This document shows, in pieces, positions 6,270 to 58,420 of a stretch of 64,000 bases of DNA (position 1 is its first letter; each line of letters starts with the position of its first letter). The translations under genes and the position numbers were made by a program. Under the pieces are notes generated by a model, which was given only the letters and a program-made list of their open reading frames with translations, did not search any database and was not told where the DNA came from. Source of the stretch: Candidatus Rokubacteria bacterium CSP1-6. GTDB taxonomy: Bacteria; Methylomirabilota; Methylomirabilia; Rokubacteriales; CSP1-6. The stretch lies in assembly GCA_001443385.1 (NCBI GenBank), contig LDXP01000003.1, positions 33,755 through 97,754 of the forward strand, in the 5' to 3' direction.

Positions 6270-8021
6270 TTAGTGTTTTTGCTGTACTTCCTTGACTGCA
6301 ACTTTCGCTAAGCGGCCCCGCCGATCCATGTAGTACTGCTGGAGGATCTGGAGAAGGTTGGAGACTGTCCAGTAGAGGACGAGCCCGGAGGCGAGGCTCA
6401 GGAACATGAACGTCATGAAAACAGGCATCAGGAGCATGATCTTCGCCTGGCGGGGATCGCCCACCGACGGGCTCATCTTCTGCTGAACGAACATCGAGAG
6501 CCCCATCAGGATCGGGAGCACGTAGGTCGGATCGTACGTGGCGAGGTCGCAGATCCAGAGGCACTGCCCCCCGAGCCACGGCACCCAGCTCGGCAGGGTC
6601 CCCAGATTGATGAACGGCGCGTTCTCCAGCTCCGTCGACACCGTGAGCATCGCGTACAAGGCGAAGAAGATCGGAATCTGGATTACCATGGGCAGGCACC
6701 CGCCCATCGGATTCACCTTGTGCTGCCTGTAGAGCTCCATCGTCTCGCGCTGGAGCCGCTGCGGGTCCTTCTTCTGATACTTCGCCCGCAGCGCGTTGAT
6801 CTGGGGCTGGAGCGCCTGCATGGCCTTCATGGACGCCATGCTCTTGAGGGTCAGCGGGTAGAAAAGGATCTTGGTGATCACGGTCAGGATGATGATCGCA
6901 ACGCCGTAGTTCGGCACGTAGTCGTAGAACCACCGCATCAATCTGAGGAGGGGTACGACGATCCATTCCATCGGCAAGGTGGGGAAGCCCGACCGCGCCC
7001 AGCTCTCCGGGAAGGGGAACCCGCCGAAGTAAACGGCCTTCTCGAGCCCCACCCCGAGCGCCTGCAGGCGCTCGTACTCCATCGGGCCGAGGTACTGGAG
7101 CCACTTGCCTTCCCAGGCTTGGCCTGGCTGCAGCGTGGGCACTACGGCGCGGATGCCGATCTCGGCGCGCTTGGTCGCTCTGCCCTCGCCAGCCGGACCG
7201 TTGGCAAGCGCGCGCTCCAATACGGTGATGCCCGGGCTCCGCGGGATGAGCGCCGTCAGATATAGGCCGTTCACCCCGGTGATCGGGGCCACGCCGCTCT
7301 CGAACCCGATCCACCCGGATCCGGAAAACTCCTTAGCATCCTTGATGTAGACGCGATGCGCCCAGGATTCCCCCGGGGCGAGGCGGACGACACTGATCGG
7401 CCGGGGCCCCCGAAACCCCTCCTGCTCCTTGGGCCACTCCACCGGCGCCACCCAAGTCAGGGTGAGTTCGGCCCCCTGCGCCGCCCTGTGCCGGTTCTCG
7501 ACCCGGATCTCATGCTCGAGTACGTAGCTGTCGATCCGGACCGTCAGCACCTGCGTGATCCGAAGCCCGAACCCGTCCTCGCCGACCATCCGGATCTGGC
7601 CCCGGCGTGTCTCCTGCCGCACGGGCTCTACCGACAACTCGAACGCCACGGGCACCGGCGGAGCTCCGGCCCGGTGGACGGTCAGAGGATCCTGAGCCAC
7701 CAGACCCTTAAGGACCATCGGCTTCTCGCCGCGGAAGTGGAGATTCCATGCCTCCAGCGCCCCTCCCCCACTGGCCACCTCCGCCGAGTAGAGAGGAGTC
7801 TCAAAAGTCACCTTCCGCTCCGGCGGGGCTGGTCTCGGCCGCGGCGAGACAGGGGCGGTCTCGGCCAGCGGGGGTGGGGCCGGGGGCGGCTTGGACTCGG
7901 CCGGGGCTTGAGCGGGCGGGGAGGGGAGCGGCTCGGGAGGAAAGAGCCGGGCCTGGACGAACAGGAAGAGGGCAAAGAGGACCGACGACAGCAGGAGGGC
8001 CAGAATCAGGTTTCTTTCCAT
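6270..8021 (-). CDS. yidC: Membrane protein insertase YidC
   Basis: 583-aa ORF with N-terminal TM, a large periplasmic domain and the conserved C-terminal 5-TM YidC/Oxa1 core; classic rpmH-rnpA-yidD-yidC order. Confidence 0.9.
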
Positions 8022-8254
8022 GTCCTCAACGCCCGCGGCGGAACGGGATCGTACCCTCCCGGATGAAAGGGGTGGCAGCGGACCAGGCGCCGGACCGCCA
8101 GCCAGGATCCGCGGCCCGCGCCGTGCTGGACCACGGCCTCACGCACGTACTCGGAGCACGAGGGGTAAAAGCGGCAGGCACGAGGGAGGAGCGGGGAGAG
8201 GAACCGCTGGTACCCTCGGATGAGCCACGCGACCGCGGCAGCGAGGCGGCTCAC
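8006..8254 (-). CDS. yidD: Membrane protein insertion efficiency factor YidD
   Basis: Conserved YidD sequence (RFYPSCSEY...HP..GG.DPVP); GTGA overlap with the rnpA stop if GTG 8254 is the start. Confidence 0.75.
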
Positions 8255-8613
8255 GCCCCCCCCTGCCGGCACCGCTTGGCCACGGCGTCTAGCCCCTCGC
8301 GCATGTCCTGAAGGATCTCGCCGTACGGGCCCGTGGCCGCGCGCGGCCGGGCCACGACGACCAGCTGCACGCCCTCGGGAAGCCGCCGCCGACTCACCCG
8401 GTACGCCTCCCGGACGCGCCGCCGAGCCCGGTTGCGGCGAGCCGCGCTCCCGATCTGGCGGCTGACCGCGAAGCCGGCTTGACGCCGCCCCGGGGCCGCG
8501 CGCCAGAGGAGCAGCACCGACGGCCGTTCGATCCGCGCGCCCCGCTGGAAGACGGCCTGGAACTCCTCGGCGCCGGTCAGCCGTTCACTCCGCGGAAAGG
8601 CCTCGCCGCCCAC
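8251..8613 (-). CDS. rnpA: Ribonuclease P protein component
   Basis: 120-aa basic protein with the RnpA RNR-like motif; lies between rpmH and yidD. Confidence 0.85.
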
Positions 8614-8626
8614 CGCCGTGTCGTCG

Positions 8627-8761
8627 CTAGACGGTGAGCCGTCTCCGTCCCTTGGCGCGGCGCCGCTTGAGCACCTTCCGCCCGCCGCGCGTCTTCATTC
8701 GCTCGCGAAAGCCGTGCGTCCCCTTGCGCTTGCGGCGATTCGGCTGGTACGTGCGCTTCAT
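8627..8761 (-). CDS. rpmH: 50S ribosomal protein L34
   Basis: Missing from the ORF track (<60 aa). Reverse complement reads [44 protein letters not shown], near-identical to the L34 consensus. Confidence 0.9.
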
Positions 8762-9025
8762 GGGGGCACTCCTCCTCTCCGTCGAAAAACCGATTCAGTC
8801 TACAGACCGCCCCCCGTGAAGTCAAGCCGGCGGCGGAGCCGGGAAAGTGAAGAACGGGGTTGCCTCCTCGCTTTCCGCTGTGCTATGGTAGCACCCGCTT
8901 TTCGCCCCGAGTGTGACGCCCGGCGGTTTTTTCTTTCCGCTCCGACCGGAGCCGACGAGGGTTCGTATTCCGATGGGTTGTCGCCCCGCCGTCCATCACC
9001 CCGCCTCGCTGGCAATTCGATCCCG

Positions 9026-9045
9026 TTATCCACACGTGTGGATAA
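9026..9045. promoter_or_regulatory. Palindromic pair of consensus DnaA boxes (TTATCCACACGTGTGGATAA) upstream of dnaA
   Basis: TTATCCACA at 9026-9034 and TGTGGATAA at 9037-9045, both perfect matches to the DnaA box consensus, ~50 bp before the dnaA start. Confidence 0.7.
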
Positions 9046-9090
9046 CTCTGTGCGTAACTGGGCCCGTCGCCTGTCCTGGAGAATACTTAC

Positions 9091-10410
9091 ATGCTTGAAA
9101 GCCTCTGGACCCGGCTGCTCTCCTCACTCGAGCACAAGATTCCCGAGGCCGCGCTCGACACGTGGGTCCGCTCGAGCCGCTTGATGGCTGTCGAGGGCGA
9201 TCGCCTTCAGATCGCGGCTCCCAATAAGTTCTCGCGCGACTGGCTGGCGGAACACTACCTTCCCGCCCTCGCCGCGGCCGCCCAGGACTGCCTCGGGGGA
9301 AACCCCCAGGTCTCCATCGTGGTGGACGCGACGCCCGCCCCCGCACGGTCGCCCGGCGACGACGCGGCGCTGCCGGCGCCGACCTCCACGGCCTCCGGGC
9401 TCAACCCCCGCTACACGTTCGAGACGTTTGTCGTCGGCTCGTCCAACCAGTTCGCCCAGGCGGCCTGCCAGGCCGTGGCCGAACTGCCCAGCAAGGCCTA
9501 CAACCCGCTCTTCATCTACGGCGGGGTCGGCCTGGGGAAGACCCACCTCCTCCACGCCGTCGGCCATCAGATCACCCGCCTCTTCCCCGGCCTCCATGTG
9601 CTCTACCTCTCCTCGGAGCGCTTCACCAACGACCTCATCAACGCCATCCGCTACGACCGCACCGCCGAGTTCCGCGCCAAGTACCGGACCATCGACCTCC
9701 TCCTGATCGACGACATCCAGTTCATCTCCGGCAAGGAGCGCACGCAGGAGGAGTTCTTCCACACGTTCAACGACCTCTACGACTCCCGCAAGCAGATCGT
9801 CGTGTCCAGTGACAGCACGCCCAAGGAGATCCCGGAGATCGAGGAGCGCCTGCGCTCGCGCTTCGAGTGGGGGCTCATCGCCGACATCCAGCCCCCCGAC
9901 TTCGAGACGCGGGTGGCCATTTTGAAAAAGAAGGCCGGCGTCGAGCGCGTGCGCCTGTCGGACGACGTGGCCTATCTGATTGCCAGCCGCGTCAAGTCCA
10001 ACATCCGCGAACTCGAGGGCTCCCTCACGCGCATGATCGCCTTCTGCGCGCTGACCGGTCGGGAGATGACCCCCGACCTGGCCCAGGATGTCCTCTCCGA
10101 CCTTTGGGGCGAGGATGAGCGGATCATCACCCTCGAACAGATCCAGCGGAAGGTGTCCGACTTCTTCGGCATGAAGCTGTCGGACCTCAAGGCCAAAAAC
10201 CGGACGCGGGCCATTGCCTTCCCGCGCCAGATCGCCATGTACCTCGCCCGCCAGCTCACCACCGCCTCCCTGCTGGAGATCGGCCGCGCGTTCGGCGGGA
10301 AGGATCACACCACCGTCCTACACGCTGTGGATAAGATCACCCTGCTGCTCCAAGAAGACCCCAAACTGCGCAAGACGATCGACACCCTCACCCAGGGAAT
10401 CGCCTCGTGA
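9091..10410 (+). CDS. dnaA: Chromosomal replication initiator protein DnaA
   Basis: AAA+ Walker A GGVGLGKTHLL, the sensor/box VII region, and the C-terminal DNA-binding domain (AIAFPRQIAMYLARQLT...KDHTTVLHA). Confidence 0.95.
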   Translation: MLESLWTRLLSSLEHKIPEAALDTWVRSSRLMAVEGDRLQIAAPNKFSRDWLAEHYLPALAAAAQDCLGGNPQVSIVVDATPAPARSPGDDAALPAPTSTASGLNPRYTFETFVVGSSNQFAQAACQAVAELPSKAYNPLFIYGGVGLGKTHLLHAVGHQITRLFPGLHVLYLSSERFTNDLINAIRYDRTAEFRAKYRTIDLLLIDDIQFISGKERTQEEFFHTFNDLYDSRKQIVVSSDSTPKEIPEIEERLRSRFEWGLIADIQPPDFETRVAILKKKAGVERVRLSDDVAYLIASRVKSNIRELEGSLTRMIAFCALTGREMTPDLAQDVLSDLWGEDERIITLEQIQRKVSDFFGMKLSDLKAKNRTRAIAFPRQIAMYLARQLTTASLLEIGRAFGGKDHTTVLHAVDKITLLLQEDPKLRKTIDTLTQGIAS

Positions 10411-10441
10411 TCCACGCTCATCCCATCCCTGCCCACCGGCG

Positions 10442-10450
10442 TATCCACAG
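10442..10450. promoter_or_regulatory. DnaA-box-like nonamer TATCCACAG
   Basis: 8/9 match to TTATCCACA in the dnaA-dnaN intergenic region. Confidence 0.5.
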
Positions 10451-10532
10451 TCCGCTGGTTCGGCCCGGCCTTTCCCTGCGGGGACTTCGGCCTTCTCCCC
10501 GCCATCCCGCCGGCGAGTACGACTACGACTAC

Positions 10533-10580
10533 TCAGAAGTCTTAATTTCTTTTCTTAAGACTATAAGTTCTCTTTAGAGT
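10533..10580. other. Candidate oriC DNA-unwinding element: AT-rich tract with a perfect 8-bp inverted repeat AGTCTTAA/TTAAGACT
   Basis: About 50 bp at >70% AT inside a ~68% GC genome, sited between dnaA and dnaN next to a DnaA box; the dnaA-dnaN intergenic origin is common in many phyla. Confidence 0.55.
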
Positions 10581-10591
10581 TGGAGGATCCC

Positions 10592-11686
10592 ATGGAGGTT
10601 CAGCTCGAGCGCGATGCCTTTTCCAAAGGGCTCCAGATGGTCCAGAACATCGTCGAACCCCGGCAGACCCTGCCCATCCTGGCGAATGTCCTTCTCGAGA
10701 CGGAGGGAGACGTGCTCCGCGTGACCGCGACCGACCTCGCGGTAGGAGCGCGGGTGTCGGTGCCGGCCAAGGTGGCCTCGCCAGGCGCTATCACGCTCTC
10801 GGCGCGAAAGCTCGCCGAGATCGTGAAGGAGTTGCCCGTGGCGCCGCTGTCCCTCAAGGTCCAGGAAAATGCCTGGGTCGTTCTCCGCTGTGGCGGGGTC
10901 TCCTACAAGCTGGTGGGGCTGGCGGCGGAGGATTTTCCGGCGGTGGTCCCCACGGCGTCGCCGGCCTGGGTGTCGCTGGACGGAAAGGCGCTGAAAGAGA
11001 TGCTGGGGCGAACGGCATTCGCGATGTCCCACGACGAGAGCCGCTACGCGTTGAACGGGGTGCTCCTGTCCGTGCAGCCCGGGCGCCTCCGGGTTGTCGC
11101 CACCGATGGGCATCGGTTGGCGCTTGCCTCGCGGGCGCTCCCGAACGGAGCGGGGAGCGCCACGGGCATCGTGCCCCGGAAGGCGGTTCAGGAGGTGATG
11201 CGGGTGCTGGGAGCCGGCGAGGAGGTGCAGGTCGCCCTGGTGGAGAATCAATTCATCCTCAGGATGCCGAACTTCCTCCTCGTGGCGCGGCTGATCGAGG
11301 GGCAGTTCCCGAACTACGAGCAGGTCGTGCCGAAGGGGCACCCCTGCCGGCTCGCGGTCTCGCGGTCCGCCCTGGCCGCGGCGCTGCGGCGGGTGTCCGT
11401 GCTCTCCGAGGAGCGCACCAAGCCCGTCAAGTTGCTCCTCTCACCGGGCTCCCTGAAGCTGTCCGCCTCCAACCCCGAACTGGGCGAGGCGGAGGAGAGC
11501 CTGGCGGTGGACTACTCGGGCGAGGAGTTGGCGATCGGGTTCAACTCCCGCTATGTGCTGGACGCCCTCGGCGCCATCGAAACGGACGAGGTGGTCGCCG
11601 AGCTCAAGGACGGATTGAGCCCGGGAATCATCCGAAGCTTGGAGGGCGAGGAGTACTTCTGTGTTATAATGCCTATGAGGATTTAG
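10592..11686 (+). CDS. dnaN: DNA polymerase III beta sliding clamp
   Basis: Three-domain beta-clamp sequence; ATG at 10592 is preceded by a GGAGG RBS (10582-10586). Confidence 0.92.
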   Translation: MEVQLERDAFSKGLQMVQNIVEPRQTLPILANVLLETEGDVLRVTATDLAVGARVSVPAKVASPGAITLSARKLAEIVKELPVAPLSLKVQENAWVVLRCGGVSYKLVGLAAEDFPAVVPTASPAWVSLDGKALKEMLGRTAFAMSHDESRYALNGVLLSVQPGRLRVVATDGHRLALASRALPNGAGSATGIVPRKAVQEVMRVLGAGEEVQVALVENQFILRMPNFLLVARLIEGQFPNYEQVVPKGHPCRLAVSRSALAAALRRVSVLSEERTKPVKLLLSPGSLKLSASNPELGEAEESLAVDYSGEELAIGFNSRYVLDALGAIETDEVVAELKDGLSPGIIRSLEGEEYFCVIMPMRI

Positions 11687-11746
11687 TATCGAATGAGAGC
11701 AGGATAGGGTGGAGGTCCGATGGGTCACGCCACGTCGCTTCCCTGA

Positions 11747-14215
<2,469 letters not shown>

Positions 14216-14231
14216 TCTTTCGCCCGCCCAC

Positions 14232-16670
14232 ATGTCCCCCAACGAGCGCGTCGTTCCCGTCCCGATCGAAGAGGAAATGCGCAAGTCCTACCTGGCCTAC
14301 GCGATGTCCGTCATCGTCGGGCGGGCGCTCCCGGACATCCGCGACGGGCTCAAGCCTGTGCACCGCCGTGTGCTGTACACGATGCAAAGCCTCGGGCTGG
14401 CCTGGAACCGGGCGTACAAGAAATCGGCCAAGGTCGTGGGCGAGGTGCTCGGGAAGTATCACCCTCACGGCGACGCGCCGGTCTACGAAGCGCTGGTGCG
14501 GATGGTCCAGGAATTCTCCTTGCGCTACCCGCTGGTGGACGGTCAGGGCAACTACGGGTCGATCGACGGGGATCCGCCCGCGGCCTATCGCTACACGGAG
14601 GCGCGGCTGGCCAAGATCGCCCACGAGATGCTCGCGGACATCGACAAGGGGACGGTGGACTTCGTCCCGAACTTCGACGAGTCGGAGCAGGAGCCGACGG
14701 TTCTCCCGACCAGACTCCCCAACCTCCTGGTCAACGGCTCGTCCGGGATCGCGGTGGGGATGGCGACCAACATCCCGCCCCACAACCTCTCGGAGGTCGT
14801 GGACGGGCTCGTCATGCTCATCGACAACCCTGCCGCCACGGTGGACGACCTTATGGCGGTCATCAAGGGCCCCGACTTTCCCACGCGGGGGTACATCTAC
14901 GGGACGGCCGGGATCCGCGAGGCGTTCACCACGGGGCGCGGGACGATCACGATGCGGGCCAAGGCCCACGCCGAGAAGATGCGCGGCGGGCGCGAAGCGA
15001 TCATCGTGACCGAGCTGCCCTATCAGGTGAACAAGGCCACGCTGATCGAGAAGATCGCCGAGCTCGCCCGCGAGAAGAAGATCGAGGGGATTTCGGAGAT
15101 CCGCGACGAATCCAGCCGCGAGGGGATCCGGATCGTGCTCGAGGTGGGGCGGGGCGAGATCCCGCAGATCCTCCTGAACCAGCTCCACAAGCACACCCAG
15201 ATGCAGTCCACCTTCGGGGTCATCATGCTCGCCCTCGTGGACCGCCGGCCCCAGGTGGTGACCCTCAAGGAGATGCTGGAGGCCTTTATCCGCTTCCGGC
15301 GCGAGGTGGTGACCCGGCGGACGCGGTTCGACCTGGCTCGGGCCGAGGAGCGCGCGCACATTCTCGAGGGGCTCCGCAAGGCGGTGGAGCAGCTGGACCT
15401 GGTCATCCGGCTGATCCGCGGGGCGGAGAACCCCGAGGCCGCGAAGGACGCCCTCGTGCGGCGGCTCGAGCTGACGGAGGTCCAGGCCAAGGCGATCCTC
15501 GACATGCGCCTCCAGCGCCTGACCCAGCTCGAGCGCCACAAGATCGTGGAGGAGCACGAGCAGACGCTGGCGCTGATCGCCGATCTCAAGGACATCCTGG
15601 CCTCCGAGGGGCGGCTGATGCGGATCATCAAGGAGGAATTGCTGACCCTCAAGGCCGAGTACGGCGACGAGCGACGCACTGAGATCCTGACGGAAACCAC
15701 TGAACTCACCATTGAGGATTTGCTGGCCGACGAGGAGATGGTCGTCACGATCACGCGATCGGGCTACATCAAGCGCACGCACGTGGACCTCTACCGGAGC
15801 CAGCGGCGCGGCGGCAAAGGCGTGACGGGGATGGAGACCAAGGAGGAGGACGTTGTCCAGGACCTCTTCATCGCCACGACGCACTCCTACCTCCTCTTCT
15901 TCACGTCGCAGGGCAAGGTCCACTGGCTCAAGGTCCACGAGATCCCCGAGGGCGGCCGGCAGGCGAAGGGCAAGGCCATGGCGAACCTCCTGGCGCTGGC
16001 CGAGACCGAGCGGGTGGCGGCGGTGCTGCCGATTCGGGAGTTCGAGGCGGGCGGGTTCATCCTGTTCGCCACCAAGCAGGGGAAGGTGAAGAAGACGGAA
16101 CTGGAGGCGTACTCGCACCCCCGCGCGGGCGGGATCCAGGCCATCGCGCTCGAGGAGGGCGATGAGGTGATGGCCGCCCGGCGGACCGACGGCCAGCGCG
16201 AGGTTGTGATGTCCACCAAGAAGGGGATGATCATCCGGTTCTCCGAGGAGGAAGCGCGGCCCATGGGTCGCGTGGCGGCCGGGGTCCGGGGGATCGACGT
16301 CGAGGACGGCGACCAGGTGATCGCCGCCGAGGTTGTGCTGGAGGGGGCCGCCCTCCTCACGGTGACCGAGCGCGGCTACGGCAAGCAGACCCCGCTGGAG
16401 GAGTACCGCCTGCAGGGACGGGCCGGGAAGGGGATCATCGACATCAAGACCGGCGGGCGGAACGGCGACGTCGTGGGGGTGGTCCAGGCCCGGCCCGGCG
16501 ACGACATCCTGGTGGTCACGACCAAGGGGAAGATCATCCGGATGCACGCCCCCGACGTGTCGTCCCAGGGCCGGAACACGTGGGGCGTGCGCGTGATCGA
16601 CCTGGACCCCGACGATCAGGTGGGGAGCGTGGCGCGGGTCGACGCCGAGCAGACCGAGCCCGAATCATAG
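14232..16670 (+). CDS. gyrA: DNA gyrase subunit A
   Basis: 812-aa ORF with the active-site Tyr region (AAMRYTEARL-like [10 protein letters not shown]) and the C-terminal beta-pinwheel GyrA-box repeats. Confidence 0.95.
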
Positions 16671-18020
<1,350 letters not shown>

Positions 18021-18026
18021 ACGCCG

Positions 18027-18113
18027 GAGGGGTGGCCGAGCGGTTGAAGGCGCCGGTCTTGAAAACCGGAATCCCGCAAGGGATCGGGGGTTCGAATCCC
18101 TCCCCCTCCGCCA
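18027..18113 (+). tRNA. tRNA-Ser (anticodon TGA)
   Basis: Cloverleaf with GGAGGGG acceptor, anticodon loop CTTGAAA, long variable arm, T-loop TTCGAAT, and an encoded CCA. Confidence 0.85.
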
Positions 18114-18116
18114 AAT

Positions 18117-18190
18117 CCTCGGAGGGGGGCTCCGCCCCCCTTCCGACGCCCCGCGGCAAAGCCGGCGCGCGAAGCACGCGCGCTTTCGCC
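18117..18190 (+). repeat. Intergenic G/C-rich hairpin repeat, copy 1
   Basis: The 30-nt core CCTCGGAGGGGGGCTCCGCCCCCCTTCCGA is identical to the core at 48886 and to the reverse complement of 62491-62519; followed by the GGCAAAGCC hairpin motif. Confidence 0.8.
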
Positions 18191-18230
18191 AGAGCCCGGA
18201 ATGCCTTATAGTGGGTAGGCTTGACGCTTG

Positions 18231-18324
18231 GGAGAGGTGGCCGAGTTGGCCGAAGGCAGCCGCCTGCTAAGCGGTTACAGGGGCAAAACCTCTGTCCCGG
18301 GTTCGAATCCCGGCCTCTCCGCCA
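18231..18324 (+). tRNA. tRNA-Ser (anticodon GCT)
   Basis: Acceptor GGAGAGG, anticodon loop CTGCTAA, long variable arm, T-loop TTCGAAT, encoded CCA. Confidence 0.85.
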
Positions 18325-18326
18325 TC

Positions 18327-18403
18327 GCGCCCATAGCTCAGTTGGATAGAGCGTCGGACTACGAATCCGAAGGCCGCAGGTTCAAGTCCTGCTGGGCGCA
18401 CCA
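18327..18403 (+). tRNA. tRNA-Arg (anticodon ACG)
   Basis: GCGCCCATAGCTCAGTTGGATAGAGC... with anticodon loop CTACGAA and encoded CCA; 2 nt after tRNA-Ser(GCT). Confidence 0.9.
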
Positions 18404-18407
18404 TTTC

Positions 18408-18440
18408 GACCCCCCGGGAGGGCGCCACTCTCGGGGGGTC
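18408..18440 (+). terminator. GC-rich hairpin after the tRNA pair (GACCCCCCGGGAG...CTCTCGGGGGGTC)
   Basis: A 12-13-bp near-perfect inverted repeat right after tRNA-Arg; no U-tract, so the terminator or processing role is inferred. Confidence 0.4.
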
Positions 18441-18480
18441 CTTCGCTTCGCTGCCTGACCCCATCGTCCGGGTGTGCTAG

Positions 18481-18960
<480 letters not shown>

Positions 18961-18962
18961 TG

Positions 18963-19058
18963 CGGAGGGGTGGCCGAGCCCGGTTGAAGGCGTCCGACTC
19001 GAAATCGGATAGGGGCCCAGAAGGTCCCTCGGGGGTTCAAATCCTCTCCCCTCCGCCA
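18963..19058 (+). tRNA. tRNA-Ser (anticodon CGA)
   Basis: Acceptor GGAGGGG, anticodon loop CTCGAAA, long variable arm, T-loop TTCAAAT, encoded CCA. Confidence 0.8.
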
Positions 19059-19061
19059 TAT

Positions 19062-19154
19062 GGAGAGGTGACCGAGCGGCCGAAGGTGCGGCATTGGAAA
19101 TGCCGTGCACGGGTAAACCCTGTGCCGTGGGTTCGAATCCCACCCTCTCCGCCA
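19062..19154 (+). tRNA. tRNA-Ser (anticodon GGA)
   Basis: Acceptor GGAGAGG, anticodon loop TTGGAAA, long variable arm, T-loop TTCGAAT, encoded CCA. Confidence 0.85.
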
Positions 19155-19171
19155 TTTGGGACATACAGCGT

Positions 19172-19441
19172 GGCCGTGCTAGACGGGGAGGTAGCGGTGC
19201 CCTGTAGCCCGCAATCCGCTACAGCGGGGTTGAATCCCCTCTCGAGGCTTCTTCGCGTTGAATGAGCTTCACGGGGCGGCGTTGAGGGTTGGGCCCCACG
19301 CAACGAGAATCGTCGAACCCCGCCAGGCCCGGAAGGGAGCAACGGTAAGGCGACCCTCTCGTGTGCCGTGGGAGTACCTGACCGGAGCAGGTTCCGTGGA
19401 GAGATCGCAGGGCGAGCGAGGTCGATTGAGGGTGCACGGCC
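19172..19441 (+). ncRNA. ffs: Signal recognition particle RNA, large (Bacillus-type) form with an Alu domain
   Basis: 5' GGCCGTGCTAGACGGGGAGGTAGCGGTGCCCTGTAGCC...GGGGTTGAATCCCC resembles the Alu-domain start of B. subtilis scRNA. Domain IV motif CCAGGCCCGGAAGGGAGCAAC...GTGTGCCGTGGGAG is present. The 3' end GGTGCACGGCC pairs with the 5' end. Sits immediately upstream of dnaX, as in many bacteria. Confidence 0.75.
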
Positions 19442-19460
19442 ATTTATCTCCGAGGGCGAC

Positions 19461-21151
19461 ATGAGCTACCAGGTGCTGGCGAGGAAGTGGCGGCCCCAGA
19501 CCTTCGACGCGGTGGTCGGCCAGGAGCCGATCACGCGGACGCTCAGGAATGCGCTGGCGGCGAACCGGATCGCCCACGCCTATCTCTTCGCGGGACCGCG
19601 CGGGATCGGGAAGACCACCACGGCGCGCCTCCTCGCCAAGGCCCTGCTGTGCACCGCGCGCCGGGACCCGGAGCCCTGCGGCGCCTGTCCGGCGTGCCGG
19701 GAACTCGTCCTTGGGACGCTGGTGGATGTCATCGAGATCGACGGCGCCTCGAACCGCGGCATCGACGACATCCGCACCCTCCGGGAGAACGTCCGGTACG
19801 CGCCGGCCCGGGGGCGGTACAAGGTCTACATCATCGACGAGGCCCATCAGCTCACCAAGGAAGCGTTCAACGCGCTCCTCAAGACGCTGGAGGAGCCCCC
19901 GGCCCACGTCGTCTTTGTCCTGGCGACGACGCAGCCCCACGAGATGCCCCTGACGGTGCTCTCGCGCTGCCAGCGGTTCGACTTCAAACCGATCCCGCCC
20001 GAGCTGCTGTCGGCGAGCCTGGAGCGGATTTTGAGGGAGGAGAAGGTCGAGTTCGACCCCGCCGCGCTGCCGCTCCTGGTTCGCAGCGCCGAAGGGAGCC
20101 TGAGGGATGCCCTGTCGCTGCTCGACACCGCGCTGGCCTACGGCGGCGGCCGGCTCGCCGCCGACTCGCTGGCGCACCTCCTGGGCGCCAGCGCCCCGGC
20201 CCAGGTGCGGGCCTTCGTCGGCGCGCTCGTGGTGCGGGACGGGGCGGGGGCACTGGAGGCGATCGATCGGGCGGCGCAGGAGGGAGAGGATCTGGCCGTG
20301 CTCTGCCGGGAGACCGTGGAGGCGTTGCGCCGGCTCCTGCTCTTGAAGGTCGCGCCGCGCCTGTCCCCCCCGGACCTGACGGCGGCCGAGATCGAGGAGT
20401 TCCGGCAGAGGCCGCCCGGCTCAGCGAAGACGAGCTGCTCTTCGTCCTGAAGGGTTTCGTCGAGGCCGAGGGGGAGGTCCGGCGTTCCCCGCATCCCCGC
20501 GTGGAGCTGGAGATCGCCGCCGTTAAAGCGGTCCGGCGCCCCGTCGCCGCGGCGATCGAGAGCGTGCTGGCCAAGGTCGAGGAAGTCGAAGAGCGCCTCC
20601 GGCAGATGGCGTTTTTAGGCGGCGCCGCGCCGGCCGCGCCGTCGGGCCCGGTGCAGGAAAGCCTGATTCCCCCCGAGTCCGGCCCGCGTCCCGCGTCTCC
20701 CGGGCCGCGAAGCGCAGCACTCCCGCCGCCCGCGCCGCGCCCGCCCGCGAGCCCGTCGGCGAAACTTCCGGCCTCCGCCGCTGCGCCCGCGGCCCAGGGG
20801 CTGGACGCGGGCTGGCGGCAGGTCGTCGAGGAGGTCCTCCGACGGAAGCCCTCGCTGGGGGCGGTGCTCGAGCAGTCCACGCCCGTCACGCTCGCCGAGG
20901 GGAAGCTGACCGTGGCGCTCGTCGGCAATCACTTCCATAAGGAGCTCGTCGCCGATCGGGCCAACCACGAGCTCGTCACCCAGGCGGTTCAGCGCCACAT
21001 CCCCGGCGCCAAGCGGATCGAGATCAGCATGGGGGCAGCGCAGGAGGCCGGCGCCCAGGGGCATCCCGCCGTGCAGGCGGCGCTGTCGGTCTTCCAGGGC
21101 GAGGTGGTGGCGGTGCGGGCGAGGACCGAGGAAGGAGGGGAAGGCCAGTGA
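19461..21151 (+). CDS. dnaX: DNA polymerase III subunit tau/gamma; full length needs a -1 frame change near 20405-20420
   Basis: N-terminal AAA+ clamp-loader (GPRGIGKTT, DEAHQL) in the frame of 19461 up to ...TAAEIEEFRQ; it continues as ...AARLSEDELLFVLKGF... plus the conserved tau C-terminus only in the -1 frame (ORF 19487..21151). The zero frame stops at 20450. Confidence 0.85.
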
Positions 21152-22074: not shown

Positions 22075-22140
22075 GGCGAAGCGAGATCGAGTAAAATAGC
22101 CATGTTCCCCGGTAGCTCAACCGGTAGAGCAGGTGGCTGT

Positions 22141-22700
22141 AAGGAGGGTGAACAGGTGGCCGGTGGGCGGACATACGCTGATCGCCGCGAGTATCTCATC
22201 AAGGCCGTCCAGAAACGGCGTAAGGAGGTGCGCCGGAAGGCGCTTGTTTACAAGGGCGGCCGTTGTCAGAAGTGCGGTTATGATCGGTGTATGGAAGCGT
22301 TGGAGTTCCACCATCTGAACTCCTCGCGTAAGGATTTTGGGATCTCCAGTCAAGGGCATACCCGCAGCTGGAACAAGATCCGCGAGGAGTTAGAGAAGTG
22401 CGCGCTCCTTTGCGCCAACTGCCATCGAGAAGTTCACGCCGGACTGCAGCTTCCACAGGAAACTGTGGCTGTAACATCGGGTGAATTCAGGGAAGCCTAC
22501 CCCGGAGTCGTCGCGATTTCGGCACGGTAATCCTGAGCGAAGCCTGCCGAAGGGCCAGCGCGTAGGCAGGAACGTGCAGAGACTAGAGGCTGAGGAGCCC
22601 ATCCAATAAAGCCTCGCAAGCGCCCGACACCCTCCCTGGATCCGATGATCGAGGTGGGTGAAGAGATAGTCCGAGCCCAGTAGAAATGCTGGGGCACTCG
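22141..22700 (+). mobile_element. Group I intron (~560 nt) in the tRNA anticodon loop, carrying an HNH endonuclease ORF
   Basis: Core element R (GTGCAGAGACTAGA, 22574-22587) and S (AAGAGATAGTCC, 22661-22672) form P7. A Q-like AATCCTGAGC lies at ~22528. The intron ends in G (22700); the 5' exon ends in U. Confidence 0.75.
22156..22530 (+). CDS. HNH homing endonuclease (intron-encoded)
   Basis: Motifs CQKCGYDRC...EFHHL...N...CALLCANCHREVH (zinc-finger HNH). GTG 22156 lies 8 nt after GGAGG. The longer ATG at 22102 would overlap the tRNA 5' exon. Confidence 0.75.
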   Translation: MAGGRTYADRREYLIKAVQKRRKEVRRKALVYKGGRCQKCGYDRCMEALEFHHLNSSRKDFGISSQGHTRSWNKIREELEKCALLCANCHREVHAGLQLPQETVAVTSGEFREAYPGVVAISAR

Positions 22701-22740
22701 TAACCACAAGGTTGCAGGTTCGAGTCCTGCCCGGGGAGCC

Positions 22741-22781
22741 ATAAAACAAAAACGGCCGTCGGAGGTGACTCCGCCGGCCGT
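22741..22781. terminator. Bidirectional hairpin terminator (ACGGCCGTCGGAG-GTGA-CTCCGCCGGCCGT) with an A/T-rich flank
   Basis: A 13-bp stem; on the minus strand it is followed by UUUUUGUUUUAU, terminating the convergent minus-strand gene, and it also follows the tRNA 3' end. Confidence 0.6.
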
Positions 22782-29993: not shown

Positions 29994-31223
29994 CTAGCTG
30001 CCGGGCTTGGCCGCGGGGGCTCCGGCGGCTGCGGAGGTGCCCTGGCCGTTATCGCCGATGGCGCAGGCCTGGCCCGCGCCCTCCGCGTGGATCGAGAGAT
30101 CCGTGATCGTCGGGGTCTTGCCGCAGAGCGGGCAGTTCGGATCCCGCCGGAGCTTCACTTCCCTGAAGCGCATGCCGAGCGCATCGAACGTCAAGAGGCG
30201 CCCGATCAGGGGCTCGCCGAAGCCCACGAGCAGCTTCACGGCTTCGGTCGCCTGCACCAGCCCGATCACTCCTGGGAGCACGCCCAGGACGCCGGCCTCG
30301 CTTCAGGAGGGGACGAGCCCAGCCGGCGGCGGCACGGGGTAGAGGCAGCGGTAGCAGGGGCCCTGGTCGGGGGCGAACACGGTGGCCATTCCCTCGAACT
30401 GGAAGATGGAGCCGTGGACGTTGGTCTTGCGCTGGAGGTAGCAGGCGTCGTTGACGAGGTACCGGGTCTCGAAGTTGTCGGAGCCGTCGATGATGAGGTC
30501 GTAGTCCTTGATGATCTCCGCGATGTTGTCCACGGTGATGCGGTGGGGGTAGGGGACGACCGTGACGTCGGGGTTGAGGGCCCGGATCGTCTCAGTGGCC
30601 GACTCCACCTTGGGGCGGCCGATGTCGGAAGTCCGGTGGAGGATCTGGCGCTGGAGGTTGGTGATGTCCACGCGATCGCCGTCCATGATCCCAAGCGTTC
30701 CGACGCCGGCGGCGGCGAGATAGTAGGCGGTGGGCGAGCCCAGGCCGCCGGCGCCGATCAGGAGGACCTTCGAGCGCAGGAGCTTCCGCTGGCCCTTTTC
30801 GCCGACCTGGCCGAGGAGGAAATGGCGGCTGTAGCGCTGGATCTGATCCGTGGTGAGCGGCGAGTCCTTGACGGTCGGATGGCCGGACTGGATCCACCGC
30901 TGGTAGCCGCCCGCCAGGTTGATGACGTTGGGAAACCCGAGGTCCTTGAGCGCCTTGGCGGCCAGCGCCGACCGGAGGCCCGTCTGGCAGTAGAGGATGA
31001 TGGGGACGCTGGGGTCGGGGGCGGCGGTCCCGATCCTGAACTCGAGGAAGCCGCGGCTGATGTTCACCGCCGGCTCGATGTAGCCGTCGCGGTACTCGTC
31101 CGGGTCGCGCACGTCGATCAGGACGAGGGGCTCGCCCGAAGCCAGGCGCGCCTGGAGCTCCTCCGGCCCTTCCTCCCGGATCGCCTGCCTGGCTTCCGCC
31201 AGCATCTCCCTCAGCGTCTTCAT
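29994..31223 (-). CDS. Rhodanese-ThiF/MoeB E1-like sulfur-carrier adenylyltransferase with an in-frame TGA (30303-30305), candidate selenocysteine
   Basis: ORFs 30303..31223 and 29994..30281 share one frame and are separated only by TGA. Joined product: N-terminal rhodanese (CQTGLRS active site), ThiF/MoeB Rossmann fold (LLIGAGGLGS), then CYRC...(TGA)SEAGV...PNCPLCG. The TGA sits where the conserved Cys of the E1 loop lies. Confidence 0.7.
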
Positions 31224-31300
31224 TCTCTAACTCCTTGCCCTATTTGCGAAAAGAGAATACCACCATTTCCGATCAAGTCAAGGGCATTCTCCAATCGCCC

Positions 31301-57715: not shown

Positions 57716-58420
57716 TCAGCGACCGAGGTAGGCCTTGAGGGTCTGCTCGCTCTCCAGCAGTTCCTGCCCGGTGCCGGAGAGGACGATCCGCCCGTTCTCG
57801 AGGACGTAGCCCCGCCGGGAGGTCGCGAGGGCCTGGCGGACGTTCTGCTCGACCAGCAGCACCGTCACGCCGCGGGCGTTGATCTCCCGGATGATCCGGA
57901 AAATCTCCTGCACCACCATGGGGGCCAGGCCGAGCGACGGCTCGTCCAGCATCAGGAGGGAGGGCCGGGCCATCAGCGCGCGGGCGATGACGCACATCTG
58001 CTGCTCGCCGCCGGAGAGGCTGCCCGCGCGCTGGGCCGCCCGCTCGCGGAGGATCGGGAACCGGGCCATCACGTCCTCCAGCGTCCGGGCGCGCGCGGGG
58101 CGCGAGCGCCGCGTGTAGGCGCCCAGCTCCAGGTTCTCGCGCACCGTCAGCGAGGGAAAGAGCTTCCGCCCCTCCGGGACCTGGACCACCCCCGCCTCGA
58201 CGATCCGGTCCGGCGGCAGCCGGTCCAGGCGCCGGCCCTCGAAGCGGATCTCGCCGCGCCGGGGACGGAGAAGGCCCGAGACCGTTCGGAGCATGGTGGT
58301 CTTGCCGGCGCCGTTGCCGCCGACGAGGGTCACGATCTCGCCGGACTCGACCCGCAGCGAGACCCCGCGGAGCGCCTGCAGGTCCCCGTAGAAGACGTCC
58401 ACCCCCTCCAGTTCAAGCAT
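57716..58420 (-). CDS. livF: Branched-chain amino acid ABC transporter ATP-binding protein LivF
   Basis: Walker A GGNGAGKTT, signature LSGGEQQM, Walker B LLMLDEP. Confidence 0.88.
   Translation of the reverse strand: MLELEGVDVFYGDLQALRGVSLRVESGEIVTLVGGNGAGKTTMLRTVSGLLRPRRGEIRFEGRRLDRLPPDRIVEAGVVQVPEGRKLFPSLTVRENLELGAYTRRSRPARARTLEDVMARFPILRERAAQRAGSLSGGEQQMCVIARALMARPSLLMLDEPSLGLAPMVVQEIFRIIREINARGVTVLLVEQNVRQALATSRRGYVLENGRIVLSGTGQELLESEQTLKAYLGR

Follow-up and report, generated by a model that had tools for sequence, protein, structure and literature searches.

The Gene and Its Interrupted Reading Frame

The window analyzed here is a stretch of 64,000 nucleotides from Candidatus Rokubacteria bacterium CSP1-6 (contig LDXP01000003.1), numbered from its first letter, whose minus strand carries a gene for a rhodanese-MoeB/ThiF-type enzyme that is interrupted by an in-frame TGA (Table 1). 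It is very probable that this gene encodes one selenoprotein of 409 residues, in which UGA codon 307 is read as selenocysteine (Sec) and which activates a ubiquitin-like sulfur carrier. A single frame leads from the ATG at 31223-31221 to the TAG at 29996-29994 and is broken only by the TGA at 30305-30303. The first open reading frame (ORF), 31223..30303 on the minus strand, has 306 codons and ends at this TGA, after which the frame stays open for 102 further sense codons up to the TAG. The second listed ORF, 30281..29994 on the same strand, starts with GTG in the same frame, seven sense codons past the TGA. A preliminary description of the locus, in which two ORFs of one frame were said to be separated only by a TGA and seven sense codons, is therefore correct as to the frame. 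The motifs that it listed for the joined protein (CQTGLRS, CYRC, and CPLCG, together with a nucleotide-binding fold) were all found, and its statement that a truncated upstream product would lack two zinc ligands holds as well, CPLCG being encoded 3′ of the TGA. It had also raised the concern of a sequencing error at 30303-30305. However, an identical 306-residue product was found on at least 23 contigs of separate Joint Genome Institute (JGI) metagenomes, by which a read or assembly error is excluded, and the TGA recurs in 146 of 160 related loci. The TGA is genuine.

For the profile searches, Cys was put at the TGA position of the joined 409-residue query. Two Pfam families were matched, namely Rhodanese PF00581 at residues 20-112 (75 bits) and ThiF PF00899 at residues 131-365 (288 bits), the latter over profile positions 1-237 of 238 in a match that runs across the TGA. 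The score for NCBIfam NF006444/PRK08762 (molybdopterin-synthase adenylyltransferase MoeB) was 521 bits, where the curated cutoff is 449, and the match covers positions 4-375 of the 387 in the profile. As judged by these matches, the protein is a rhodanese-MoeB/ThiF-type adenylyltransferase/sulfurtransferase. The N-terminal placement of the rhodanese domain, which had at first been regarded as unusual, is in fact the curated architecture of NF006444/PRK08762. It should be noted that the molybdopterin-synthase name of this family is an annotation and not an assay. Cys79, which opens the six-residue active-site loop of the rhodanese domain, is unchanged in 139 of 139 distinct homologues. The zinc ligands C290, C293, C364, and C367 are likewise invariant in all 139 distinct full-length sequences, and the Rossmann-type nucleotide site GAGGLG follows the GxGxxG pattern. 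When a close Cys-form relative was modeled by AlphaFold2, the rhodanese and ThiF domains were predicted confidently, whereas confidence was low for the loop 304-313, in keeping with a crossover loop that is mobile.

Position of the TGA Codon and Its Prevalence among Relatives

The best matches obtained with phmmer against the PDB were E. coli MoeB (1jw9_B, E = 6e-59), Uba4 (6yub), and ThiF (1zfn). The TGA column corresponds to the non-zinc loop Cys in all three, which is Cys187 in MoeB (ALTCVEAGV), Cys184 in ThiF (ERNCRTAGV), and the loop Cys in Uba4 (QTSCGEAGIMG). The MoeB alignment of the preliminary description was thus reproduced, and the same column is Cys in all full-length Cys-form relatives. 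Two types of relative were recovered by protein search. The first is full-length, with about 400 residues and 72-79% identity, and displays GLVPSC followed by Ala, Gly, or Ser. The second is represented by dozens of different proteins, each exactly 306 residues long, with 79-100% identity and GLVPS as their common end.

Two sets of DNA were then compared, one of the 80 species-genome loci nearest to the Sec-form query, nearly all labelled as Rokubacteria/Rokuibacteriota/Methylomirabilota, and one of 80 metagenome loci from soil and groundwater that were fetched with a Cys-form query. In these 160 related loci, a TGA with the frame continuing behind it was present in 146 and TGC or TGT in 14. 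TGA was found in 79 of the best 80 species-genome loci by similarity to the query, a figure that overstates the prevalence in the phylum as a whole since the set was picked by similarity to a Sec form. Among the nearest copies are those on JACPSW010000012.1 and JBBTEL010000336.1, with about 96-98% identity to the window protein. Despite the Cys-form seed, the metagenome loci were divided into 67 with TGA and 13 with Cys. The TGA forms comprise 126 distinct sequences, the most divergent of which have a protein identity of about 72%. In every relative with an interruption the codon is TGA, with TAA and TAG absent, and falls on the Cys column. Among the Rokubacteria-type relatives recovered, the TGA form predominates.

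The neighboring codons were also recorded. The codon 5′ of the UGA (30306-30308) is always a Ser codon ending in C, either TCC or AGC, and the codon 3′ of it (30300-30302) is always Ser in TGA forms (AGC, n = 119; AGT, n = 7). In the 14 Cys-form DNA loci, the residue after Cys is Ala or Gly. One relative, P0003, stands out among the Cys-form proteins in that it alone has Ser after the Cys and it alone ends in Gly-Gly; these features suggest a recent change from Sec to Cys.

Translation past the TGA

The seven codons directly 3′ of the TGA display the pattern of a coding sequence. In 126 distinct TGA-form DNA segments, the amino acids of codons +1 to +7 (S-E-A-G-V-L-G) are invariant, and at codons +3 (Ala) and +4 (Gly) all four third bases are used, with an entropy of 1.36 and 1.34 bits, respectively. 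No start codon is present between the TGA and codon +8, and the part of the relatives that was examined showed neither frameshifts nor extra in-frame stops. The amino acids are kept while the third bases at +3 and +4 are free, and no start lies before +8; therefore, the TGA is read through. Judged from this pattern of substitution, the stretch is under protein-coding selection and hence translated.

The Predicted SECIS Hairpin

A hairpin begins 14 nt 3′ of the UGA and carries G-U in its loop at nucleotides 25-26, the U of UGA being counted as 1. It coincides with a second kind of conservation. Across the 126 distinct TGA forms, codons +5 to +9 (GUC CUG GGC GUG CUC) do not vary at all in their third bases (zero entropy), whereas the four-fold degenerate sites that flank the hairpin have an entropy of 1.0-1.6 bits. 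At codon +10, 118 sequences have CCA and 8 have CCG, a change by which a U-A pair becomes U-G and pairing is kept. In the 14 Cys forms, the same V-L-G-V-L-P peptide is encoded by other, variable codons (GUG, CUG/CUC, CCC/CCG). The constancy of the synonymous sites is confined to the TGA forms, as predicted for a cis-acting recoding signal, and the constraint on the hairpin at the nucleotide level is, in this comparison, tied to the presence of the TGA.

The form of the hairpin is also that of a bacterial selenocysteine insertion sequence (bSECIS; SECIS for the element in general). Published descriptions of the bSECIS specify a loop of 3-9 nt, a stem of 4-16 bp, and a G in the first two loop positions (PMC13188914), together with 16-37 nt from the UGA to the loop and a minimum free energy of no more than -7.5 kcal/mol (PMC13188914). 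The hairpin has a 6-nt loop and a 6-bp stem, extended to 7 bp if codon +11 is GGA, with -11.9 kcal/mol. The G is located at loop position 2 and is followed by U at position 3, and the spacing from the UGA to the loop is 20 nt. All four published properties (PMC13188914) are thus present, and the early suggestion that a hairpin with G and U in its loop might be a bacterial SECIS agrees well with both this geometry and the invariant synonymous sites.

Folding of single sequences was also tried as evidence for a SECIS and was dropped, the 73-nt region giving z = -0.40 against shuffles. The 22-nt hairpin alone gave z = -2.76, and a Cys-form sequence folds just as stably as the TGA form. Folding energy does not discriminate in a genome of 68% GC, and synonymous-site conservation was therefore used; the significance of the hairpin rests on comparative data and not on folding energy. 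Below the upper stem, the RNAalifold consensus pairs a further four columns. Only one-sided changes were found in this lower stem (C-G to U-G, and G-C to G-U), and one pair is lost in 8 of 66 sequences, so that an extended SECIS is weakly suggested.

Comparison with Known Selenoproteins and Related Enzymes

The family to which the window gene belongs has been described before. A “Molybdopterin biosynthesis MoeB protein” was reported as a new selenoprotein family with 11 sequences in the Sargasso Sea selenoproteome of 2005 (Zhang, Fomenko & Gladyshev; PMC1088965). It was found again in the Global Ocean Sampling (GOS) data of 2008 (PMC2398784), in which 19 Sec forms and 2,262 Cys forms were counted, and is listed in reviews of 2022 and 2026 (PMC9312934, PMC13188914). 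Marine sequences for comparison were taken from the supplementary file of the 2005 paper (PMC1088965). In these proteins, Sec is located at the exact column of the window TGA with the same flanking motif, CYRCLY..PPPA.LVPS-U (e.g., AACY01471790), and the same hairpin core GGCGUGCUCC lies downstream of the UGA. The core common to the Sargasso and window hairpins has the pattern GUCCUGGGCGUGCUCCC[A/G]GG. The marine DNA AACY01749113, for example, reads TGA GCG GTT GCC GGA GTC CTG GGC GTG CTC CCG GGG, and the stem of an AT-richer marine copy, UUUGGG/CCCAGG, still pairs by means of wobble. Over the combined alignment of marine and window-type sequences, 96.9% of stem cells pair. The Sargasso proteins share 55% identity with the window protein over the MoeB domain, and both are fused to a rhodanese domain. 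However, this domain is C-terminal (MoeZ-type) in the marine proteins but N-terminal in the window protein, which has a short C-terminal tail. Sec is followed by Ser-Glu in the window protein and by Ala-Val, once Ser-Val, in the marine set, and the lineages also differ, being soil and groundwater Rokubacteria in one case and marine plankton in the other. From these sequences, the window gene is a further member of the known MoeB selenoprotein family. Of the candidate selenoprotein put forward in the preliminary description, the Sec reading is thus strengthened by the Cys/TGA pairing, the translation, and the SECIS, whereas novelty of kind falls away since the family, with the same residue, was published in 2005.

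Other related systems were compared as well. The Cys forms of NF006444/PRK08762 have the same domain order, zinc motifs, and position of the loop residue, but carry Cys at 307, usually followed by Ala or Gly, and only 1 of 46 ends in Gly-Gly. With Uba4, MOCS3, and MoeZ the window enzyme shares the adenylation domain, the crossover-loop Cys position, and the rhodanese persulfide Cys; it differs in its permuted domain order, in being bacterial, and in having Sec predicted in place of Cys. The fdhF-type SECIS is likewise a stem-loop inside the ORF just after the UGA, with a small apical loop in which G is followed by U. The loop of the fdhF SECIS carries G23-U24. No sequence similarity to fdhF is present, and the loop G-U of the window hairpin is 2 nt further from the UGA.

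Alternative Explanations

Were the TGA a true stop, the locus would hold either a split gene, made up of a 306-residue rhodanese-ThiF protein and a 95-residue fragment started at the GTG at 30281, or a decaying pseudogene. The JGI and NCBI gene calls, which give products of 306 and 87 or 95 residues, favor such a division, and the GTG at 30281 is a possible start codon. Nevertheless, the seven codons from the TGA to this GTG contain no start, yet their amino acids are invariant in 126 sequences, with synonymous change at +3 and +4. Moreover, the TGA is kept down to about 72% identity with no frameshift or extra stop in the region examined, the upstream fragment would be left without two of its four zinc ligands, and neither TAA nor TAG ever takes the place of the TGA, which is always located on the Cys column. 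A split gene or pseudogene is consequently very unlikely. A reassignment of TGA throughout the genome (genetic codes 4 or 25) would also open the frame, but can hardly be credited at all, because 17 of 47 window ORFs supported by G+C content at third codon positions (GC3) end at TGA with normal lengths, and reassignment would not place TGA specifically on the Cys column. Furthermore, the 64-kb window was scanned for TGA codons past which the coding signal persists in the same frame, and this site was the only one within a single gene. A second hit of the scan, at 57716-57718, was considered as a selenoprotein and rejected, since it represents two adjacent genes in the same frame.

A different residue might also be inserted at the UGA by a near-cognate or suppressor tRNA (Trp, Cys, or Arg), the hairpin being a generic stimulator of read-through. 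This would be in keeping with the failure to find Sec machinery in the window, where 10 of about 47 ORFs and the neighborhood were scanned. It is nonetheless improbable, since homologues have a nucleophilic Cys at the position, the hairpin has the geometry of a SelB-type bSECIS with the loop G-U at nucleotides 25-26, marine MoeB genes with this codon and hairpin have been classed as selenoproteins, and the phylum is reported to be rich in Sec. As to the last point, one metagenome-assembled genome of the Methylomirabilota has 63 predicted selenoprotein genes (PMC13188914), and Sec-type [NiFeSe] hydrogenases have been described in this phylum (PMC13582414). A literature search for Rokubacteria together with selenocysteine or selenoprotein returned nothing specific to this gene.

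Several results weigh against a Sec-containing carrier-activating enzyme. The stem of the hairpin has no compensatory double substitutions, only wobble-compatible single changes, and no SECIS model of Rfam was matched even at E <= 10. No tRNA-Sec was found in the window, and SelA, SelB, and SelD were absent from the annotated neighborhood and from the 10 of about 47 GC3-supported ORFs that were scanned with Pfam (yidC, dnaA, dnaN, serS, dnaX, an acyl-CoA dehydrogenase, an OAD beta subunit, an MFS transporter, a PPIase, and an FAD-binding oxidoreductase). The absence of sel genes from a window at the replication origin says little. In addition, the window contains no MoaD/ThiS-like carrier gene, hence no pathway is assigned. 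Finally, the 2001 work of Leimkuhler et al. is said to have found Cys187 dispensable in stand-alone E. coli MoeB, and a catalytic role of the loop residue is therefore argued by analogy to Uba4 and ThiF rather than to MoeB.

Proposed Mechanism and Carrier

Under the Sec reading, delivery of the residue and the subsequent chemistry may be pictured as follows. While the ribosome is at the UGA, SelB with Sec-tRNA(Sec) would bind the hairpin and Sec307 would be inserted, taking the place of the crossover-loop Cys. The C-terminal glycine of a carrier of the MoaD, ThiS, CysO, or Urm1 type would be adenylated by the enzyme. Subsequently, attack by Sec307 would give an acyl-selenoester with the carrier or, alternatively, join Sec307 to the Cys79 persulfide in a Se-S species. 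Sulfur would then be moved from the rhodanese Cys79-SSH, after which the thiocarboxylated carrier would be released. This proposal is drawn by analogy to Uba4, to whose loop Cys the TGA aligns in 6yub. In yeast Uba4, an essential thioester is formed between Cys225 of the crossover loop and adenylated Urm1, and Cys225 passes Urm1 to the rhodanese persulfide (PMC6007339). No GC3-supported small ORF ending in Gly-Gly is present in the window. A MoCF_biosynth (MoaB/Mog) gene is located about 1.7 kb from the selenoprotein gene and, as the only pointer of its kind, hints at molybdenum cofactor synthesis.

The C-Terminal Tail

The MoaD, ThiS, and Urm1 carriers that are adenylated by MoeB/ThiF enzymes characteristically end in Gly-Gly. 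The tail of the relatives usually ends in [KR][AP]GG, and the window copy ends in KPGS. Gly-Gly ends were found in 88 of 133 distinct Sec forms versus 1 of 46 Cys forms, with about 2% expected from the composition of the tail; the Cys forms often end in GGSA. Cys387 is conserved in 136 of 139 sequences, and the linker behind it is variable and rich in Ala and Pro. An origin of the GG codons in a ribosome-binding site was rejected, since GGC GGC is the prevailing codon pair and the loci have different sequences downstream of it. It is conceivable, at a low probability, that the enzyme carries its own substrate or pseudo-substrate in this tail, whose terminal Gly would be adenylated and then either thiocarboxylated or caught by Sec307 in an intramolecular selenoester. 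If so, the enzyme would be a self-contained sulfur (or selenium) relay with no separate beta-grasp carrier. AlphaFold2 gave no sign of docking of the tail, which has a predicted local distance difference test (pLDDT) score below 40, the Sec loop also being of low confidence. The association between Sec and GG may simply be due to shared ancestry.

Gene Neighborhood and Other Features of the Window

The coordinates of the gene and of further features are collected in Table 1. Promoter-like matches were found at 2 sites versus 0.2 expected in shuffles. The neighbors of the selenoprotein gene are rmlACBD, which is divergent, a PNPOx-like gene, an HtrA-type protease gene, MoCF_biosynth (MoaB/Mog), and GlcDEF-like genes. 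There is no terminator-like site between the selenoprotein gene and the PNPOx-like ORF, and since the gap of 12 nt lacks such a site, the two genes may be co-transcribed. Adjacency of the PNPOx-like gene was observed only in the closest relatives (L001, L002, and L004).

Table 1. Positions of the predicted selenoprotein gene, its parts, and other features in the window.
Feature	Position	Strand	Remarks
Selenoprotein gene (predicted), complete	29994..31223	-	409 residues and TAG stop; Sec-UGA is codon 307
In-frame TGA, predicted Sec codon (residue 307)	30303..30305	-	crossover loop, flanked by the first CxxC and the following helix
Predicted SECIS upper stem-loop	30271..30288	-	CCUGGG 30288-30283, loop CGUGCU 30282-30277, CCCAGG 30276-30271
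Possible extended SECIS with 4-bp lower stem	30262..30295	-	RNAalifold consensus, alignment columns 11-14 with 41-44
N-terminal rhodanese domain	30888..31166	-	residues 20-112; active-site Cys79 (TGC 30989-30987) in loop CQTGLR
ThiF/MoeB adenylation domain	30129..30833	-	residues 131-365; GAGGLG; CYRC 30356-30345, CPLC 30134-30123
C-terminal tail	29997..30122	-	residues 368-409; conserved DLSIH, conserved Cys387 (30065-30063), Ala/Pro-rich linker, terminus KPGS
Sigma-70-like promoter match, TTGACT / 16 nt / TATTCT	31254..31281	-	consensus match only
Putative ribosome-binding site AAGGAG	31236-31231	-	7 nt upstream of ATG; read from sequence, consensus match only
PNPOx-like ORF, 162 aa	29493-29981	-	start 12 nt past the selenoprotein stop
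tRNA-Asn(GUU) gene, split by a group I intron	22106-22741	+	break between anticodon nucleotides 35 and 36

Elsewhere in the window, 6270-20450 is the chromosomal replication-origin region with yidC, dnaA, dnaN, serS, and dnaX, and two ORFs of about 800 residues within it are probably gyrB and gyrA. Four tRNA-Ser genes and a tRNA-Arg gene are located at 18026-19154, and all four tRNA-Ser isoacceptor genes directly adjoin serS; a large-type signal recognition particle (SRP) RNA follows at 19174-19439. The intron in the tRNA-Asn gene has 560 nt (22141-22700), with an Rfam RF00028 core at 22390-22693 (75.5 bits), and carries an HNH-endonuclease-like ORF (EFHHLNSSRKDF...CANCHREVH). ARAGORN made no call on the native sequence of this gene and called tRNA-Asn(gtt) on the spliced 76-nt product.

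Significance

In public gene calls, the gene is split into a 306-residue “ThiF family adenylyltransferase” (or similar) and an ORF of 87 or 95 residues, in more than 100 assemblies of Rokubacteria/Methylomirabilota. With one 409-residue selenoprotein as the probable correct product, these records would be systematically mis-annotated. Two further relatives seem to be gene-model or assembly artefacts around the same site, P0001, with an internal duplication and probably an assembly chimera, and P0053, with a gap of about 45 residues by which the Sec loop is deleted.

The known catalogue of selenoprotein families is left unchanged by this analysis. The new points are the predominance of the TGA form in the relatives recovered, the split annotation, the module common to both domain orders, and the GG tail of the Sec forms. 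To our knowledge, no MoeB-type selenoprotein has been studied biochemically. The same Sec codon and a near-identical SECIS are present in marine MoeZ-type proteins of the opposite domain order, which suggests that the module of Sec loop and SECIS is older than the rhodanese fusion or has moved independently of it. From the predominance of the TGA form, the crossover-loop nucleophile of a sulfur-carrier-activating enzyme appears to be routinely selenium-based in this abundant uncultured soil lineage.

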